UHGV virus genome: UHGV-0212075
DNA from: a virus
Length of the DNA stretch: 14,519 bases
Strand: one strand, 5' to 3'
Numbering within the stretch: the stretch's first letter is position 1; each line of letters begins with the position of its first letter. The notes below the pieces were generated by a model. The model searched no databases, was not told where the DNA came from, and saw only the letters and a list, made by a program, of their open reading frames with translations. Shown here one piece after another: positions 3,087-14,270 of the stretch. The position numbers were made by a program, and so were the translations under genes.

Positions 3087-4703
3087 TTACGGCATACTCA
3101 TCAGCAGATCTTCTTCTCCGTGCCCGGCAGCTCCACCACCGGAAACCGCACTGGCAGCATGCTGTGCCATAAAGCGATCAAAAAGTGTTTCCTGTGACGG
3201 CTGCGATGCCGTCGGCGCGGCTGCCAGCAACGTTTTCGCCTGCGCCACTGTCATTCCCGGTTGTTCTGCCAGTGCCTGTGCAAGTTGATCGCGACCTTTC
3301 GCCTCCGGCAGCGCCATAATCTGATCGCCGACACTTGCAGAACCGGCAACCGGTGCCGCCGCCAGTAACGTTTTTGCCTGGTCAACGGTCATTCCCGGCT
3401 GTTCAGCCAGCGCCTGCGCGAGTTGTTCACGCCCTTTAGCTTCCGGCAACGCCATAATCTGATCGCCTGTGCCTGCAGCACTGGCAGCAGGGGCTGCTGC
3501 CAGAAACGCTTTCGCCTGCTCCACCGTCATCCCCGGTTGACCTGCCAGCATCTGTGCCAGTTGCTCACGCCCCTTTGCTTCCGGCAGCGCCATAATCTGA
3601 TCACCCGTGCTGTCAGTACCGGCAACCGGCGCAGCTGCCAGCAACGTTTTCGCCTGCTCAACCGTCATTCCAGGCTGACCTGCCAGCATTTGCGCCAGTT
3701 GCTCGCGCCCTTTCGCCTCCTGACAATTCAGGATCCCCATCACGCGCTGATTTTCCTGGGCCACCGCTTCAGCAACGGTGAGATTTTTAACAGTCATTGC
3801 ATTCTCCTTCGTAACAGAGTCATTCAGTGCAGAAACCATTACATCAACGGCATCTGCAGCATTAATCAGTTGATCAGCCAGGCCTGTATCAATGCCTGCC
3901 TGACCGTCATAAACGGCAGCCTCGGTATTCATCACCACCTCTGAACTCAGCCCCGTATAAAGTGCCACCTTGTCGACAAACATCCGGCGGGCCTCATCAA
4001 TACGGCGCTGAAAATCCGCACGCACACCTGCCGGCAATGCCTGAATACTGTTGCCGTCAACCTTGTGCTGCCCGGAGTAAATCAGCGTGATATCCACCCC
4101 TTCCTGTGCCAGTTGTTTCTCGTAACTGGTGTGCGCCATCATCACACCAATCGAACCAATTTTTGCCGTCTGCGTGACCAGCCGACGCGTACAGGCTGCC
4201 GCCAGCAACATGGCGGCTGAACAGGCCATATCATTACACAGCGCCCACACGGGCTTCTGTTCCCGCAGGCGGTAAATCATGTCAGCACAGTCAAACGCCC
4301 CGGCAGCCTGACCGCCCGGGCTGTCGATATCCAGCAAAATGCCGCGCACATCCGGGTCATTCACCGCCATCTGAAGACGGGCTGTCAGGCCGTCATAGCC
4401 TGTCATGCCGGAGTAAGGGCGCAGGGTACCCAGTTTATGCACCAGCGTGCCGCTCACCGGCAGAATGGCGATGCCATTCTTCACCTGGTAACTCTTTACC
4501 GGGCGCTGACCGCCCGCCATATAGTCAGTCACAGCCAGTTGCATACCATCAGCATCAAGCTGAACAGCCTGCTGAGGAACGGCAAGGCTGCCGGCCCCCA
4601 TCTCTTTACCCAGCGCGCAAAAGAAAACCCGCGCATAGGCGGGCTCCAGTAAAAGCGGTTCATTAAATGCCATGGCGGCAATATGTGATAAATTACGACG
4701 CAT
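3087..4703 (-). CDS. C: prohead protease / scaffold, lambda gpC-like (ClpP/S49-type peptidase with C-terminal Nu3-like scaffold region)
   Basis: 538 aa; ATG at 4703 overlaps the B stop by 11 nt. N-terminus ...HIAAMAFNEPLLLEPAYARVFFCAL and core ...YSGMTGY...DSPGG...KPVWALCNDMACSA...LVTQTAKIGSIGVMM...LIYSGQHKVDGN match lambda C. The C-terminal region holds four tandem ~46-aa units related to the single MGILNCEEAHGRE... segment of lambda C/Nu3. Confidence 0.9.
   Translation of the reverse strand: MRRNLSHIAAMAFNEPLLLEPAYARVFFCALGKEMGAGSLAVPQQAVQLDADGMQLAVTDYMAGGQRPVKSYQVKNGIAILPVSGTLVHKLGTLRPYSGMTGYDGLTARLQMAVNDPDVRGILLDIDSPGGQAAGAFDCADMIYRLREQKPVWALCNDMACSAAMLLAAACTRRLVTQTAKIGSIGVMMAHTSYEKQLAQEGVDITLIYSGQHKVDGNSIQALPAGVRADFQRRIDEARRMFVDKVALYTGLSSEVVMNTEAAVYDGQAGIDTGLADQLINAADAVDVMVSALNDSVTKENAMTVKNLTVAEAVAQENQRVMGILNCQEAKGREQLAQMLAGQPGMTVEQAKTLLAAAPVAGTDSTGDQIMALPEAKGREQLAQMLAGQPGMTVEQAKAFLAAAPAASAAGTGDQIMALPEAKGREQLAQALAEQPGMTVDQAKTLLAAAPVAGSASVGDQIMALPEAKGRDQLAQALAEQPGMTVAQAKTLLAAAPTASQPSQETLFDRFMAQHAASAVSGGGAAGHGEEDLLMSMP
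3175..3726 (-). repeat. in-frame tandem repeat, period 138 bp (46 aa), ~4 copies, in the 3' part of the C gene
   Basis: The string gccataatct recurs at plus 3313, 3451 and 3589 (spacing exactly 138), with a degenerate copy near 3175. Protein units ALPEAKGREQLAQ(M/A)LA(G/E)QPGMTV(E/D/A)QAK(T/A)(L/F)LAAAP... repeat four times. Confidence 0.85.
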
Positions 4704-9976: not shown

Positions 9977-10201
9977 TCATGAAATAGGCAACAACGTGGC
10001 CGTTACAATCCCCGCCATATTTGCGTTCAGATCACATTCAACAGAAATTTCTTCATCCGTGGCATCCACTTCATATGTCCGGGAATAACACTCCGTGCAT
10101 TTACCACTGAAGATATCCTTAACCAGAACACGTCCACGCTGCAAAACCCTGAATGGAATCGTTCCGTTAAAGGGCTTTACGGTTACCAGTAATCTCTTCA
10201 T
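9977..10201 (-). CDS. hypothetical protein (accessory-island ORF X3, 74 aa, CxxC-containing)
   Basis: ATG at 10201 preceded by GGAGGGG (MKRLLVTVKPFNGTIPFRVLQRGRVLVKDIFSGKCTECYS...). A longer N-terminal extension from ATG 10255 is possible but lacks an SD. 40-nt gap to X2 suggests co-transcription. Confidence 0.45.
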   Translation of the reverse strand: MKRLLVTVKPFNGTIPFRVLQRGRVLVKDIFSGKCTECYSRTYEVDATDEEISVECDLNANMAGIVTATLLPIS

Positions 10202-10464
10202 ATCCCCTCCGGATAAAAATGCCCCTTGCCGCCCGGGCTGTTGTTCAAAGTTCATCCTGATTCGGCAAGATTCAGAATGTATAAGACAAATTGACACACA
10301 CAGCAGAATTTCATGCTTTCCGGACGCTGGCGCATCCTTCATTTTTCAGCGAAATATTCTGCTCTTACAGGCGATCAGTTCTGCAGACACTGCCGGATGC
10401 CATCAATCAGCGGACAGGCCTGAGGAGCTGCATCAAATAATTGGCGCAGCCGGGACTTTACTTT

Positions 10465-10746
10465 TTATTTACTGGTGTGAGTGCGACATCTGGCTATTTC
10501 ATCCCGGGCTTTACTGTCACCGCGACAGATACAACGCACCGTGTCTCCGGTCAGTGTGGTAATGTAAACCTCATCCTCTTTTTCTACCGGAATACATGGA
10601 GTATTCCCGTCCCGGCAATACTCAATTTTTGCAGCAAGATGAGTGTCACGCGGATAGAACTCCAGGCGATACATATCCCCAAGGACATGCACTTCCTCAA
10701 CCTGGCGACCATCTTCAGTTACCGTAATTTTTTTCAGTGCGTACAT
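10465..10746 (-). CDS. hypothetical protein (accessory-island ORF X4, 93 aa, Cys-rich)
   Basis: ATG at 10746 preceded by GGAGGT (MYALKKITVTEDGRQVEEVHVLGDMYRLEFYPRDTHLAAKIEYCRDGNTPC...). Five Cys including a CxC; the longer track ORF from 10866 would run through a terminator. Confidence 0.5.
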   Translation of the reverse strand: MYALKKITVTEDGRQVEEVHVLGDMYRLEFYPRDTHLAAKIEYCRDGNTPCIPVEKEDEVYITTLTGDTVRCICRGDSKARDEIARCRTHTSK

Positions 10747-10775
10747 ACGTACCTCCGTTCTTTCGTTTTTTGAGC

Positions 10776-10803
10776 AATAAAAAAGGCCGCCGAAGCGACC
10801 TTT
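10776..10803 (-). terminator. intrinsic terminator (minus strand) after ORF X5
   Basis: Minus-strand RNA GGUCGC-UUCG-GCGGCC (6-bp stem with one G-U pair, UUCG tetraloop; plus 10785-10800) followed by UUUUUUAUU. Confidence 0.6.
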
Positions 10804-10825
10804 ACCATTAAGTTCACATCTTCTG

Positions 10826-11032
10826 TCAGGATGTATGGCAATCTCTACAGCACCAGTAACACCCATTTGCTCTTGTGTAGCCCAGATTTTTTGCAGCCCT
10901 CACAGCTGGCTCGCATGAGTTAAACTCACCCAGCTCCTTACGATTGTTTGCGTCAGGAAGTCGAAAACAAGTTTCTGTATGAACTTCGTGATCGTTCTGA
11001 GCATCTTCAAGAGTGTGAACATAGTACTTCAT
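10826..11032 (-). CDS. hypothetical protein (accessory-island ORF X5, 68 aa, six Cys)
   Basis: ATG at 11032 preceded by GGAGAA with a 6-nt spacer (MKYYVHTLEDAQNDHEVHTETCFRLPDANNRKELGEFNSCEPAVRAAKNLGYTRANGCYWCCRDCHTS). Followed by an intrinsic terminator. Confidence 0.55.
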   Translation of the reverse strand: MKYYVHTLEDAQNDHEVHTETCFRLPDANNRKELGEFNSCEPAVRAAKNLGYTRANGCYWCCRDCHTS

Positions 11033-11090: not shown

Positions 11091-11288
11091 TCATTGATAA
11101 TGATCATTTATTTTAACGCAGCATCTAACAGCGTCGACAATTTCACAGACCTGAGAGGCTGTATCGAAAAGCTGACGCGCTTTATCCAGGCTGACGCATC
11201 CCACCAATAAAAAAGGCACCAGTATCTCTACCAGTGCCCATTTCGCCGCCGTTCGCGGCATTCTGTGCGTCCAGTGTTTTCTGCTCAT
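11091..11288 (-). CDS. putative small lipoprotein at the 3' end of the lysis cassette (possible non-canonical spanin-like component)
   Basis: Start at ATG 11288 (AGGT SD, 5-nt spacer). Basic N-region, hydrophobic WALVEILVPFLLVG, then a lipobox-like LVGC followed by a ~34-aa mature part with three more Cys. Directly follows the endolysin. Confidence 0.5.
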   Translation of the reverse strand: MSRKHWTHRMPRTAAKWALVEILVPFLLVGCVSLDKARQLFDTASQVCEIVDAVRCCVKINDHYQ

Positions 11289-11302
11289 AACACACCTGGT
11301 TA

Positions 11303-11680
11303 TCAGCGTTTCAACTGAAAGTGAGGCCCGTCTTTCAGTGTTTTCCAGTCCCCGCCCCATTCGATGGCAGTCCCCAGCTCTGCAGCAGCCTGCTTAAATG
11401 CCTGCGCGATTTTCTCGTACAGAGGCCAGTCCCATGACACCTGGCTGCCAATGTAGGCCACAACATCCACCGCATCACCGGTCAGGTGGCGGCTGTTCAT
11501 GGTCTGGCTTTTCCCTTCCGCGACCAGCTGTTTCTGGCGATACTTACTGCGCAGGCCTTCCGTAATACCGAAATCAACCTCCGTCAGCTCCAGCGCACGG
11601 CGAACGACAGCAACCAGCTGTGGTTTAACGCCCTCCAGATTCTTTTCGCTGCGACGACTAAATCTGAATTTACCCGACAT
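11303..11680 (-). CDS. endolysin, zinc-dependent cell-wall peptidase (peptidase M15 / L-alanyl-D-glutamate peptidase-like)
   Basis: ~125 aa with SRHLTGDAVD and a downstream DGPHFQ, matching the zinc-ligand motifs of M15 phage endolysins. Sits right after two membrane proteins. Start is ATG 11680 (a GTG at 11686 is the track start). Confidence 0.8.
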   Translation of the reverse strand: MSGKFRFSRRSEKNLEGVKPQLVAVVRRALELTEVDFGITEGLRSKYRQKQLVAEGKSQTMNSRHLTGDAVDVVAYIGSQVSWDWPLYEKIAQAFKQAAAELGTAIEWGGDWKTLKDGPHFQLKR

Positions 11681-11682
11681 AT

Positions 11683-11958
11683 TCACCTCAACAATGGAAA
11701 GATTTTTGTGACGTTCCCGCGTGCGCGTATCACCAGCACGCAGAACAGCAGGTTAAAAAACACTTCCAGCCAGCCCGTTGCTAACGGGCGACCACACAGA
11801 TAGCTGAGGGGCGCAAAGGCATACAGCAGCATCAGCAGCCAGGCCAGCCATGACATCAGCGGTTTATGTCTGGAATCACGGCGACGATAAAAAAAGAGCG
11901 TCAGCACGATAACCGTGCATAACGCCACATTCAGTAATCCGGGAAGGTTACTTAACAT
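11683..11958 (-). CDS. holin-like membrane protein (second small membrane protein of the lysis cassette; holin or antiholin)
   Basis: Start at ATG 11958 (MLSNLPGLLNVALCTVIVLTLFFYRRRDSRHKPLMSWLAWLLMLLYAFAPLSY...). 91 aa with three hydrophobic segments; overlaps the upstream holin 3' end by 11 nt. Confidence 0.6.
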   Translation of the reverse strand: MLSNLPGLLNVALCTVIVLTLFFYRRRDSRHKPLMSWLAWLLMLLYAFAPLSYLCGRPLATGWLEVFFNLLFCVLVIRARGNVTKIFPLLR

Positions 11959-12340
11959 TGCCGCCTCCTCCGCCACGCAGACGGGAGAACAGGCCGGACA
12001 CCAGTGATGCAATATCCTGCTGGTGGATGAATGACAGAATCTTCACCGACACCACTGACACCAGTACTGCACACAGTGCGTCAACAGGTGCACCGTCAAA
12101 CCCTGTATGCTTTACCAGCCAGGATGCCAGAACCTCTGCGCCCAGCACGCCGATAATGAACGACACCAGAAAATGCGCCGCCACACGCCAGGCTGAAAGC
12201 GCCTGCGGCATCGTTGCCACAAATAACGCCCCGGCGAACGCACCAAACACAATCCCGAAATCCGTTCCGGTAAACAGCCCGAATACCGTCGCCCCACCGA
12301 GCGCCGCAGCCGTGCCGGAACCGGACAAGGGTTCAGACAT
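11948..12340 (-). CDS. putative holin (multi-TM small membrane protein, first gene of the lysis cassette)
   Basis: ATG at 12340 preceded by AGGAGAA. 130 aa with Gly/Ala-rich hydrophobic segments (AAALGGATVFGLFTG, FGIVFGAFAGALFVA, FLVSFIIGVLGAEVLASWLV, ALCAVLVSVVSV) and a charged C-terminus. First gene after the leader terminators, immediately upstream of the endolysin. Confidence 0.7.
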   Translation of the reverse strand: MSEPLSGSGTAAALGGATVFGLFTGTDFGIVFGAFAGALFVATMPQALSAWRVAAHFLVSFIIGVLGAEVLASWLVKHTGFDGAPVDALCAVLVSVVSVKILSFIHQQDIASLVSGLFSRLRGGGGGNVK

Positions 12341-12354
12341 ACTTTTTTCTCCTG

Positions 12355-12383
12355 TAAATAAAAAAGGGCCGCCAGCGGCCCGT
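12355..12383 (-). terminator. intrinsic terminator at the end of the late leader (tR'-like)
   Basis: Plus 12366-12381 gggccg-ccag-cggccc (6-bp GC stem); on the minus strand followed by TTTTTTATTT, which runs directly into the holin RBS. Confidence 0.55.
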
Positions 12384-12511
12384 AATAAAACACCCCGTCG
12401 AAGGCATCCACCGATGTCTTTTATGTGATGTATTCAGATTCAATACACGTTGAGTGAAACGCAGATATAAAAAAGGCCCGCCGCAGCGAACCATAAAGAA
12501 ACGAGATTCTG

Positions 12512-12540
12512 AATAAAAAAAACCGCCGGATACGGCGGTT
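12512..12540 (-). terminator. intrinsic terminator within the late leader (upstream member of a tandem pair)
   Basis: Plus 12523-12538 ccgccg-gata-cggcgg with flanking A/T pairs; the minus strand has a TTTTTTTT run immediately 3' of the stem. Confidence 0.55.
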
Positions 12541-12901
12541 GGTCAATGCAAGAAATACATTCTTAATTGTAATAAAACCGAGGTGTCGGGTGCCTCCCGA
12601 AGTATTCCGTCCTGTATGAATACTGTGATTTCCCGTTAAACCGACTCTTTTAACCACCCTCGCTCTGAGGAACACCCCGGTGGTGTTATTTACAACACCA
12701 GAATGATGCATCACCGACCCTGCCAGGAAATACAAAATCTCCACCAGCAATGCACCATTCTGCTGTCGCAGAAAAATCAGCACTGAGGCTAACCTGGCCT
12801 CAAATCATAGCCAGAGAACAGAATGCTTTTTCAAAACAACCTGCTCCCACGTAATAAAAAATACGCCAGTGCTGCAATACAATAAGGCTTATTTCAAATG
12901 C

Positions 12902-12976
<75 letters not shown>

Positions 12977-12979
12977 ATA

Positions 12980-13055
<76 letters not shown>

Positions 13056-13223: not shown

Positions 13224-14270
13224 TTAACGATTATTTTTTATTTCAATTACAGTCTGGTTAAATCTCTCTTCTTCCAGTTCCACACCTATTGCACGCCTTC
13301 CCAGCGATAATGCTGCTTTTATTGTTGACCCCGACCCCATAAAAAAATCAGCGACCAAATCTCCCGGATGGCTGCTGGCGGTAATTATCTGACGCAACAT
13401 ATCCGCCGGTTTCTCACAGGGATGTTTGCCGGGGTAATACTGCACAGGCTTGTGCGTCCAGACATCCGTATACGGAACGACAGCCGATACGGAAAAATAA
13501 CGCCGCAGGGATTTGTACTCATCCAGCAGACTGGCATATTGCCGGTTCAGTTCACTGTATGTGCTGACCAGCTGGTGGTGTGGCTTTTCCAGTTCACCGC
13601 GCTGATGTTTTTCTGCTGCAACACGCGCAAACAACGCCTGTAATTTCAGATAATCGCTTTCGTTCGGCAACTGCCACTGACTGATACCAAACCAGTGCGA
13701 AGCCATGTTTTTCTTTCCGGTGGCTTCCGCTATCTGTTTTGACGTTATTCCCAGTGATTCACGCGCATCACGAAAGTAAGAAATCAGCGGGGCCATGACG
13801 TGCTGTTTTAGTTCACGCCCCTTTGCCGCATAGCCGTCATTTTTGGGCAGGTATGGCCCCTGATAATGTTCTGCAAACAGAATGCGTTCTGTTGCCGGGA
13901 AATACGTCCGCAGGCTTTCCTTGTTGCATCCGTTCCAGCGCCCGGACGGCTTCGCCCAGATAATGTGGTTCAGCACATTAAAGCGTTCACGCATCATGAT
14001 TTCGATATCAGATGCCAGGCGATGACCACAGAACAGGTAAAGACTTCCGGCAGGCTTCAGTACCCGCCAGAATTGCGCCAGACACTGGTCCAGCCATTTC
14101 AGGTAATCATCGTCGCCCTTCCACTGGTTATCCCAGCCCTCGGGCTTCACTTTAAAGTATGGCGGGTCTGTGACTATCAGATCGACAGAGTTTTCCGGTA
14201 AGGTCTGGATAAATTCCAGGCAATCAGCGTTGATTAACTCACAACTGGATATTTTTACAGTATTAATCAT
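13224..14270 (-). CDS. DNA methyltransferase, beta-class amino-methyltransferase (N6-adenine or N4-cytosine), probably an orphan phage enzyme
   Basis: 348 aa; the N-terminal ...SVDLIVTDPPY (catalytic motif IV) precedes the C-terminal ...DLVADFFMGSGST (AdoMet-binding motif I), the beta-class order, with a ~250-aa intervening region. No adjacent restriction endonuclease candidate in the window. Confidence 0.8.
   Translation of the reverse strand: MINTVKISSCELINADCLEFIQTLPENSVDLIVTDPPYFKVKPEGWDNQWKGDDDYLKWLDQCLAQFWRVLKPAGSLYLFCGHRLASDIEIMMRERFNVLNHIIWAKPSGRWNGCNKESLRTYFPATERILFAEHYQGPYLPKNDGYAAKGRELKQHVMAPLISYFRDARESLGITSKQIAEATGKKNMASHWFGISQWQLPNESDYLKLQALFARVAAEKHQRGELEKPHHQLVSTYSELNRQYASLLDEYKSLRRYFSVSAVVPYTDVWTHKPVQYYPGKHPCEKPADMLRQIITASSHPGDLVADFFMGSGSTIKAALSLGRRAIGVELEEERFNQTVIEIKNNR

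Follow-up and report, generated by a model that had tools for sequence, protein, structure and literature searches.

The colicin lysis or bacteriocin release lipoproteins, whose mature parts measure about 28–33 residues, carry an LL[VA]GC-type lipobox, are encoded last in their operon and permeabilise the envelope without an inner-membrane partner. Spanins, for their part, are regarded as near-universal in phages of Gram-negative hosts, and the exit of the approximately 13–15% of phages that are 'spanin-less' is an open question (PMC6139136; bioRxiv 10.1101/515445). The disruptin gp28 of phage phiKT is a cationic, antimicrobial-peptide-like protein (bioRxiv 10.1101/515445). In the Stx2e phage phiP27, Kongari et al. 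(2018; PMC6139136) listed a 'separated' outer-membrane spanin subunit (o-spanin) of 51 amino acids (aa) with a 30-residue mature part, 83% helical according to the Jpred entry in their table, as a singleton family, and assigned to it an inner-membrane subunit (i-spanin) of 64 aa at 20348–20542, citing the pair, with 62 periplasmic residues, as the shortest spanin in their survey. Here we describe a homologue of this lipoprotein, encoded at 11091–11288 as the last gene of a lysis cassette in the UHGV virus genome UHGV-0212075, whose 14,519 nucleotides (nt) are referred to below as the window. Our preferred reading, to which we give a probability of about 0.45, is that the protein acts alone, as an outer-membrane lipoprotein that carries out the last step of lysis with no partner in the inner membrane. 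That the phiP27 homologue was catalogued as an o-spanin is already known; its status as an orphan is new, as is the recognition that its listed i-spanin is, judging from the sequence context, an artefact.

A conserved lipoprotein gene after the endolysin

The initial annotation had seen here a lysis cassette of two holin-like proteins, an M15 peptidase endolysin and a short lipoprotein, and this description holds: the four genes lie on the minus strand at the positions listed below, and the mature lipoprotein has 35 residues. Its ATG is located 14 nt past the endolysin stop codon and is preceded by a Shine-Dalgarno-like AGGTG. The predicted signal peptide consists of a positively charged n-region, the h-region WALVEILVPFLLVG and the lipobox L-V-G-C31; the residue at +2 is Val rather than Asp, so that no Lol-avoidance signal is present and Lol sorting to the outer membrane is expected. 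The mature part is proline-free and contains cysteines at mature positions 18, 26 and 27. The 89-aa open reading frame (ORF) at 11091–11360 in the program-made ORF list comprises this gene and an out-of-frame tail of the endolysin gene, and the phrog_7528 match to it begins at residue 25.

12366–12540, minus strand: probable late-operon leader with three tandem terminator-like hairpins (12540–12521, 12492–12475 and 12381–12366), just upstream of the holin gene
11948–12340, minus strand: holin, 130 aa, about three transmembrane domains (TMDs) and a basic C-terminal tail; Pfam Phage_holin_8, E=1e-22; phrog_198, holin
11683–11958, minus strand: second holin-family protein, 91 aa, three TMDs; Phage_holin_3_7, E=1e-21; phrog_217, holin
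11303–11680, minus strand: endolysin, 125 aa, no signal or signal-arrest-release (SAR) segment; Peptidase_M15_4, E=2e-12; phrog_465, endolysin, E=2e-75
11091–11288, minus strand: lipoprotein precursor, 65 aa; phrog_7528 (function 'unknown')
11199–11288, minus strand: predicted signal peptide of the lipoprotein, followed by the codon of the putatively lipidated Cys31 (11196–11198), the mature part (11094–11198) and the stop codon (11091–11093)
11214–11239, minus strand: conserved 11-bp hairpin followed by U6, terminator-like, within the signal-peptide codons of the lipoprotein

The family comprises 139 clusters at 90% identity, and a profile search among 1.84 billion proteins returned only 23 clusters at 50% identity; all named sources are Enterobacterales. 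The family lipobox follows the consensus L[LF][VA]GC and is conserved in 114 of 120 cluster representatives, lipobox and cysteines being intact in approximately 95%. The mature consensus reads CVSLDKARQLFDTASQVCEIVDGVRQCxQN, with C1, C18 and C27 almost invariant; the window allele has the extra Cys26 and a ...CVKINDHYQ tail (11091–11123) common to a small subgroup. The gene is real, under selection and more than a chance ORF: the ratio of nonsynonymous to synonymous substitution rates (dN/dS) is 0.16 overall and 0.12 in the mature part, whereas the two other frames give ratios above 1. AlphaFold2, run with a 24-sequence alignment, predicted one continuous helix over residues 12–63 (predicted local distance difference test score, 76), in agreement with the helical Jpred call of Kongari et al. 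but otherwise uninformative, and the mature peptide displays a heptad-like hydrophobic stripe and a net charge of about -1. Among the 1.84 billion representatives, no family member with a credible C-terminal TMD or an added domain was found; longer matches resemble fusions or frameshifts, and none hints at the origin of the family. One locus assigned to the Silvanigrellaceae (L007) shows 46% identity to the lipoprotein over 39 residues, probably reflecting signal-peptide similarity only.

Loci were collected via the lipoprotein (84) and via the second holin (79); across about 170 related loci, the lipoprotein is the single element past the endolysin that stays constant. The commonest architecture is that of the window, holin8>holin37>M15>lipoprotein with 18-nt spacing, found in at least 34 loci of the lipoprotein set and in 35 of the holin set. 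The lipoprotein is present in about 70 of the 75 informative holin-sampled loci, and the five loci without it have either no intact ORFs past the endolysin or a truncated endolysin. In some loci a GH108/PG_binding_3 endolysin replaces the M15 enzyme, and distant homologues (59–64% identity) occur in minimal three-gene cassettes with a different holin, a single lambda-S-type protein in place of both holin-family proteins, as in Lelliottia (Phage_holin_3_1, GH108 and lipoprotein) and in metagenomic contigs (Phage_holin_3_1, M15 and lipoprotein). The gap between endolysin and lipoprotein genes in these distant relatives is 6 nt, with a GAGG overlapping the stop codon. A promoter scan found no promoter-like site between the two genes, the nearest one being inside the lipoprotein gene. 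Position after the endolysin, coupling to it and the lack of an intervening promoter-like site, together with the constancy of the lipoprotein while it combines freely with other holin and endolysin modules, support the stand-alone reading. This E. coli-type cassette, at approximately 90% nucleotide identity, is also found in PP818812.1 (Actinobacillus phage vB_Apl-pPE4); such a finding would be unusual in a phage of Pasteurellaceae, and the host may have been mis-assigned.

Furthermore, the lipoprotein and the lysis genes accompany at least two unrelated packaging/structural modules, one with a lambda-A-like terminase and the other the HNH/HK97-like set of phiP27. Travel with the lysis genes across unrelated packaging modules and purifying selection both favour a lipoprotein that acts in lysis on its own. 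In other, distant two-holin cassettes the same slot is occupied by Rz-like genes: an overlapped pair in HK639 (phrog_1026/1275), one annotated Rz-like spanin in LMessi and, in mEp390, two ORFs that equal those of HK639 in size. This occupancy of the slot, and the independent classification of the homologue as an o-spanin by Kongari et al., point in the same direction. We regard it as very improbable that there is no outer-membrane disruption at all and that the lipoprotein is what survives, in decay, of an earlier two-component spanin. Such decay would fit the lack of an i-spanin, the five losses mentioned above and the defective state of many of the prophages (exemplified by an IS150 insertion in a tail gene), but it is contradicted by the low dN/dS values, by the intact lipobox and cysteines, and by the retention of the gene, both in four different arrangements of the cassette and across the complete E. 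coli genomes, 352 of 5,426 of which (approximately 6.5%) carry it, in up to seven copies and always under the name 'hypothetical protein'.

Search for a spanin partner and the neighbouring genes

Every start codon in the six frames of the window was scanned for lipobox signal peptides and for proteins in which one N-terminal TMD precedes a soluble tail. The lipoprotein is the only credible lipobox ORF in these 14.5 kb, the one other pattern match being internal to a large 538-aa ORF (3087–4703) in the head-gene region. On the coding strand of the window no ORF combines an N-terminal TMD with a soluble tail of at least 25 aa, and its six frames contain no credible type-II membrane protein, the few matches being antisense or internal fragments. 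Profile searches against PHROG, Pfam and NCBIfam gave no spanin match for any ORF of the region. The scans and profiles thus bear out the initial annotation, which had recognised neither an Rz/Rz1-type pair nor an i-spanin here, and the search that it had suggested for an overlapping, embedded Rz1-like ORF in the +1 frame found none in the six frames of the window.

The initial annotation had left three options: a non-canonical short lipoprotein, a spanin equivalent among the downstream accessory ORFs, or a missing function. The comparative data make the first of them the best supported, and the third, discussed above, keeps a very small probability. The second has to be abandoned, as the downstream orf68 (10826–11032), orf93/133 (orf93 within 10465–10866) and orf121 (9977–10342) lack a TMD or signal peptide, vary in position and match only PHROGs of unknown function, and as orf68 and orf93 lie before or after the lipoprotein gene in different relatives. 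The products of the first two accessory genes are a Cys-rich 68-aa protein (10826–11032, minus strand; phrog_4298) and a 93-aa protein (10465–10746, minus strand; phrog_33497), and a terminator-like hairpin (10782–10803) is found between their genes.

The window cassette is approximately 94% identical to genes L28–L30 of phiP27. The lipoprotein homologue of this phage, the 51-aa protein with a 30-residue mature part, is encoded at 20673/20706–20861 of the record (locus L001, 3480–3635) and does not correspond to gene L31, which is an out-of-frame call. The published 64-aa i-spanin is a TTG-start ORF inside an insertion of about 500 bp between the endolysin and lipoprotein genes (L001, 3799–3993), an insertion that the window and nearly all relatives lack. 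This ORF has no PHROG match and runs antisense to another, of 90 aa, the full length of which is covered by a match to phrog_36812 (E=5e-20). Moreover, in insertion copies at 45% identity (L040, L114 and L170) the i-spanin frame contains an in-frame stop codon, while the 90-aa gene is intact. An antisense position to a conserved gene and a stop codon in the diverged copies make the published two-component assignment look wrong, and on this sequence evidence the phiP27 'i-spanin' is not a real gene. The six-frame scan of the complete phiP27 genome revealed no other type-II i-spanin candidate and no embedded Rz1-like frame, and in a phiP27-like Stx2e prophage of E. coli STEC276 the cassette is the compact four-gene one, with no Rz-like gene annotated. 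The lack of an i-spanin in both the window and the complete phiP27 genome, with the published candidate being an apparent antisense shadow ORF, supports a lipoprotein without a partner.

About half of the relatives encode, between endolysin and lipoprotein, small proteins with a single TMD, up to three per locus (tm57/tm60, corresponding to phrog_4493/1115; tm44; tm49), for instance at 3645–3818 of locus L002 and also in L075, L078 and L057; they directly precede the lipoprotein gene, with a stop codon at a distance of 1 nt from its ATG. These proteins have a strongly basic N-terminus and a C-terminal TMD, so that, by the positive-inside rule, they are predicted to be oriented N-in, facing the cytoplasm, with essentially no periplasmic domain. 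As non-canonical i-spanins, tm57, tm60 and tm44 were rejected, since they are absent from the window, are predicted to be N-in and show no coupling to lipoprotein alleles, identical mature alleles adjoining M15, tm37, tm44 or tm60 and accompanying either endolysin. They might be holin regulators.

An alternative view is that the lipoprotein is a true o-spanin with an unrecognised inner-membrane partner, be it a host protein, a holin-family protein, one of the small tail-anchored proteins or the product of a gene outside the window. The lipoprotein does look like an o-spanin, with its predicted outer-membrane lipoprotein signal, short mature domain, periplasmic cysteines and final place in the cassette; it is listed as one (PMC6139136), and the single-TMD proteins directly precede it in about half of the relatives. 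We nonetheless judge this quite unlikely, because the window and about half of all loci do without the small TMD proteins, identical lipoprotein alleles occurring with and without them, and because these proteins are predicted to leave hardly any portion in the periplasm. The holin-family proteins, in turn, are replaced by an unrelated holin in the distant cassettes and co-occur with Rz-like genes in HK639 and LMessi, the complete phiP27 genome offers no type-II candidate, and a 30-residue helix (approximately 4.5 nm) is too short to bridge the periplasm.

The mobility of the genes around the lipoprotein also bears on a different view, which we consider somewhat unlikely: that the lipoprotein is a non-lysis, moron-type accessory on the late transcript, which might, for example, exclude superinfecting phages or mask a receptor, like T5 Llp and Cor, modify the envelope or tune the timing of lysis. 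The region after the endolysin is a known cargo insertion site, in which orf68, orf93 and the small TMD genes shuffle, and Stx2e and LT-II genes lie in or beside these cassettes; the family, moreover, is narrow, Enterobacterales-like throughout and without an annotated function. Against such a role, the lipoprotein is tightly coupled to the endolysin without a promoter-like site of its own upstream, keeps its position while the true accessory genes move around it, and segregates with lysis genes rather than with modules for tails or receptor binding. PhiP27, the record of which includes tail sheath and baseplate, has the lipoprotein, which is also found together with lambda-like head and terminase genes; this distribution speaks against a blocker of one specific receptor. 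In Pfam, NCBIfam and PADLOC, the lipoprotein and the ORFs downstream of it had no match, the PADLOC result being a further point against an accessory function.

Proposed mode of action and the evidence against it

The matches to Phage_holin_8, Phage_holin_3_7 and Peptidase_M15_4 all exceed the Pfam cut-offs and identify a holin/endolysin module. The second holin-family protein starts at the ATG at 11958, inside an ORF spanning 11683–12012, and its start overlaps the holin stop codon by 11 nt; in 75 phage records the two genes are conserved together with this translational overlap, and a holin/antiholin pair, as had been proposed initially, is plausible. The endolysin ATG at 11680 gives 125 aa, an alternative GTG at 11686 gives 127 aa, and the homologue is a 378-nt gene in a PGAP annotation. 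Its residues H65, D72 and H120 would fit the M15 zinc triad, and the lack of a hydrophobic segment points to a cytoplasmic, holin-dependent enzyme.

We propose that the cassette works as a phiP27-type late-operon lysis module, in which one or both holin-family proteins would make the inner membrane permeable, whereupon the cytoplasmic M15 peptidase would degrade the peptidoglycan. The product of the gene in the spanin slot would be processed by Sec/LspA and sorted by Lol to the outer membrane, leaving a mature part of 30–35 residues, predicted to be helical, with two conserved periplasmic cysteines. From the inner leaflet, and without a partner in the inner membrane, this lipoprotein could act on the outer membrane: the accumulated and possibly disulfide-linked lipopeptide may weaken it in advance, rupture following once the wall is gone. 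In function it would then correspond to the spanins and to the phiKT disruptin, while differing from both in mechanism. Our leading guess as to mechanism is a mode resembling that of the colicin lysis proteins, an analogy drawn from size, lipobox, operon position and partner-independence and not from homology. More doubtful, although worth stating, is the further step of placing such a lipid-anchored peptide, about 30 residues long and working by itself from the inner leaflet of the outer membrane, in a third class of phage factors that disrupt this membrane, distinct from both spanins and disruptins and nearer in mechanism to the colicin release lipoproteins.

Several observations weigh against a stand-alone role in lysis. 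The LT-II enterotoxin prophages Rac-SA53 (L089) and SerU-LTIIb (L090) have the same holins and a GH108 endolysin with toxin genes directly after it, and neither this lipoprotein nor a spanin is annotated or present in their ORF lists. The mature peptide is only moderately amphipathic, its hydrophobic moment not being significantly above that of shuffled sequences (p=0.13–0.23), and the heptad analysis likewise gave no significant difference from shuffles; at a net charge of -1 and with a lipobox, it is also unlike the cationic disruptin. The lipoprotein does not match Lysis_col (PF02402) even at E<=10. Signal peptide, lipobox and TMDs were called with our own hydropathy and pattern scripts rather than with SignalP, LipoP or TMHMM, and the window allele departs from the consensus at codon 21 (11226–11228, in the hairpin loop), where A21E puts into the hydrophobic signal-peptide core a Glu that might lower export. 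Literature searches returned no experimental work on the lipoprotein family or the cassette. To our knowledge, there is no phage precedent for a lone outer-membrane lipoprotein that disrupts that membrane.

To these must be added the terminator-like hairpin inside the lipoprotein gene. It extends from 11239 to 11214 across the signal-peptide codons W17–L27, with an 11-bp stem followed by U6, and is conserved in each of the 17 distinct versions examined, those of the most distant relatives (59% identity) among them; 97% of the cells are paired. Of the synonymous recodings, only 1.7% reach the same folding stability. Covariation analysis of the hairpin found only pair-preserving one-sided changes and no compensatory ones.

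Upstream of the holin gene, the three hairpins listed above probably form the leader of a Q-antiterminated late operon; the HK639 record has four terminators annotated at the equivalent place. The region 12421–12783 is without a protein-family match. Beyond it, the window carries tRNA-Gly and tRNA-Thr genes at 12902–13055 and no toxin gene, whereas in phiP27 stx2e is located between the tRNAs and the holin. Upstream of the tRNAs lies an N6/N4 DNA methyltransferase gene (13224–14270, minus strand; PF01555, E=8e-45), whose phiP27 counterpart is gene L24.

The lipoprotein family offers a concrete candidate for spanin-less exit in E. coli, a host for which a lambda Rz/Rz1 complementation assay exists. 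In addition, a published 'two-component spanin', cited as the shortest known, is to be corrected, since its i-spanin does not appear to be real. Either the outer membrane is broken without a partner, in a manner not previously described, or its active breakage is not needed. If the proposed third class is real, it is carried by phiP27-type prophages in some 6.5% of the complete E. coli genomes, Stx2e-converting phages among them; as the cassettes directly adjoin stx2e in toxin-converting prophages, the way in which the outer membrane is opened may bear on toxin release.

Comparison with known systems

With the two-component spanins, represented by lambda Rz1, the lipoprotein shares its nature as a short, predicted outer-membrane lipoprotein at the end of a lysis cassette and its putatively periplasmic cysteines, of which C18 and C27 are conserved. 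By pattern it qualifies as an o-subunit, having a lipobox and no Lol-avoidance residue, but the scans of the window and the phiP27 genome found no i-subunit, that is, no type-II protein with a periplasmic coiled coil, and a mature part of 30–35 residues without a partner does not reach across the periplasm. Its only sequence affiliation is phrog_7528, no Rz-like family in PHROG, Pfam or NCBIfam being matched, and whereas Rz1 is proline-rich and unstructured, the lipoprotein is proline-free and predicted to be helical.

The unimolecular spanin gp11 of T1 likewise occupies the spanin slot as one gene and has a lipoprotein signal at its N-terminus; however, it has a C-terminal TMD and a long, beta-rich periplasmic domain, and the lipoprotein has neither, no hydrophobic segment following its signal peptide. 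Like phiKT gp28, the lipoprotein is a small candidate for disrupting the outer membrane independently of spanins, and its phage likewise lacks a canonical spanin. The colicin lysis proteins, whose quasi-lysis depends on outer-membrane phospholipase A, show no sequence similarity to it and belong to SOS-controlled colicin operons, in contrast to the phage late operon here.

T5 Llp, Cor and lambda Bor, which serve exclusion or the fitness of the host, are also small phage-encoded outer-membrane lipoproteins, and lambda bor is located just past the lysis genes. Their genes are tied to receptor-binding modules or have a promoter or strand of their own, whereas the lipoprotein gene described here is co-oriented with the endolysin gene, coupled to it and travels with the lysis module.

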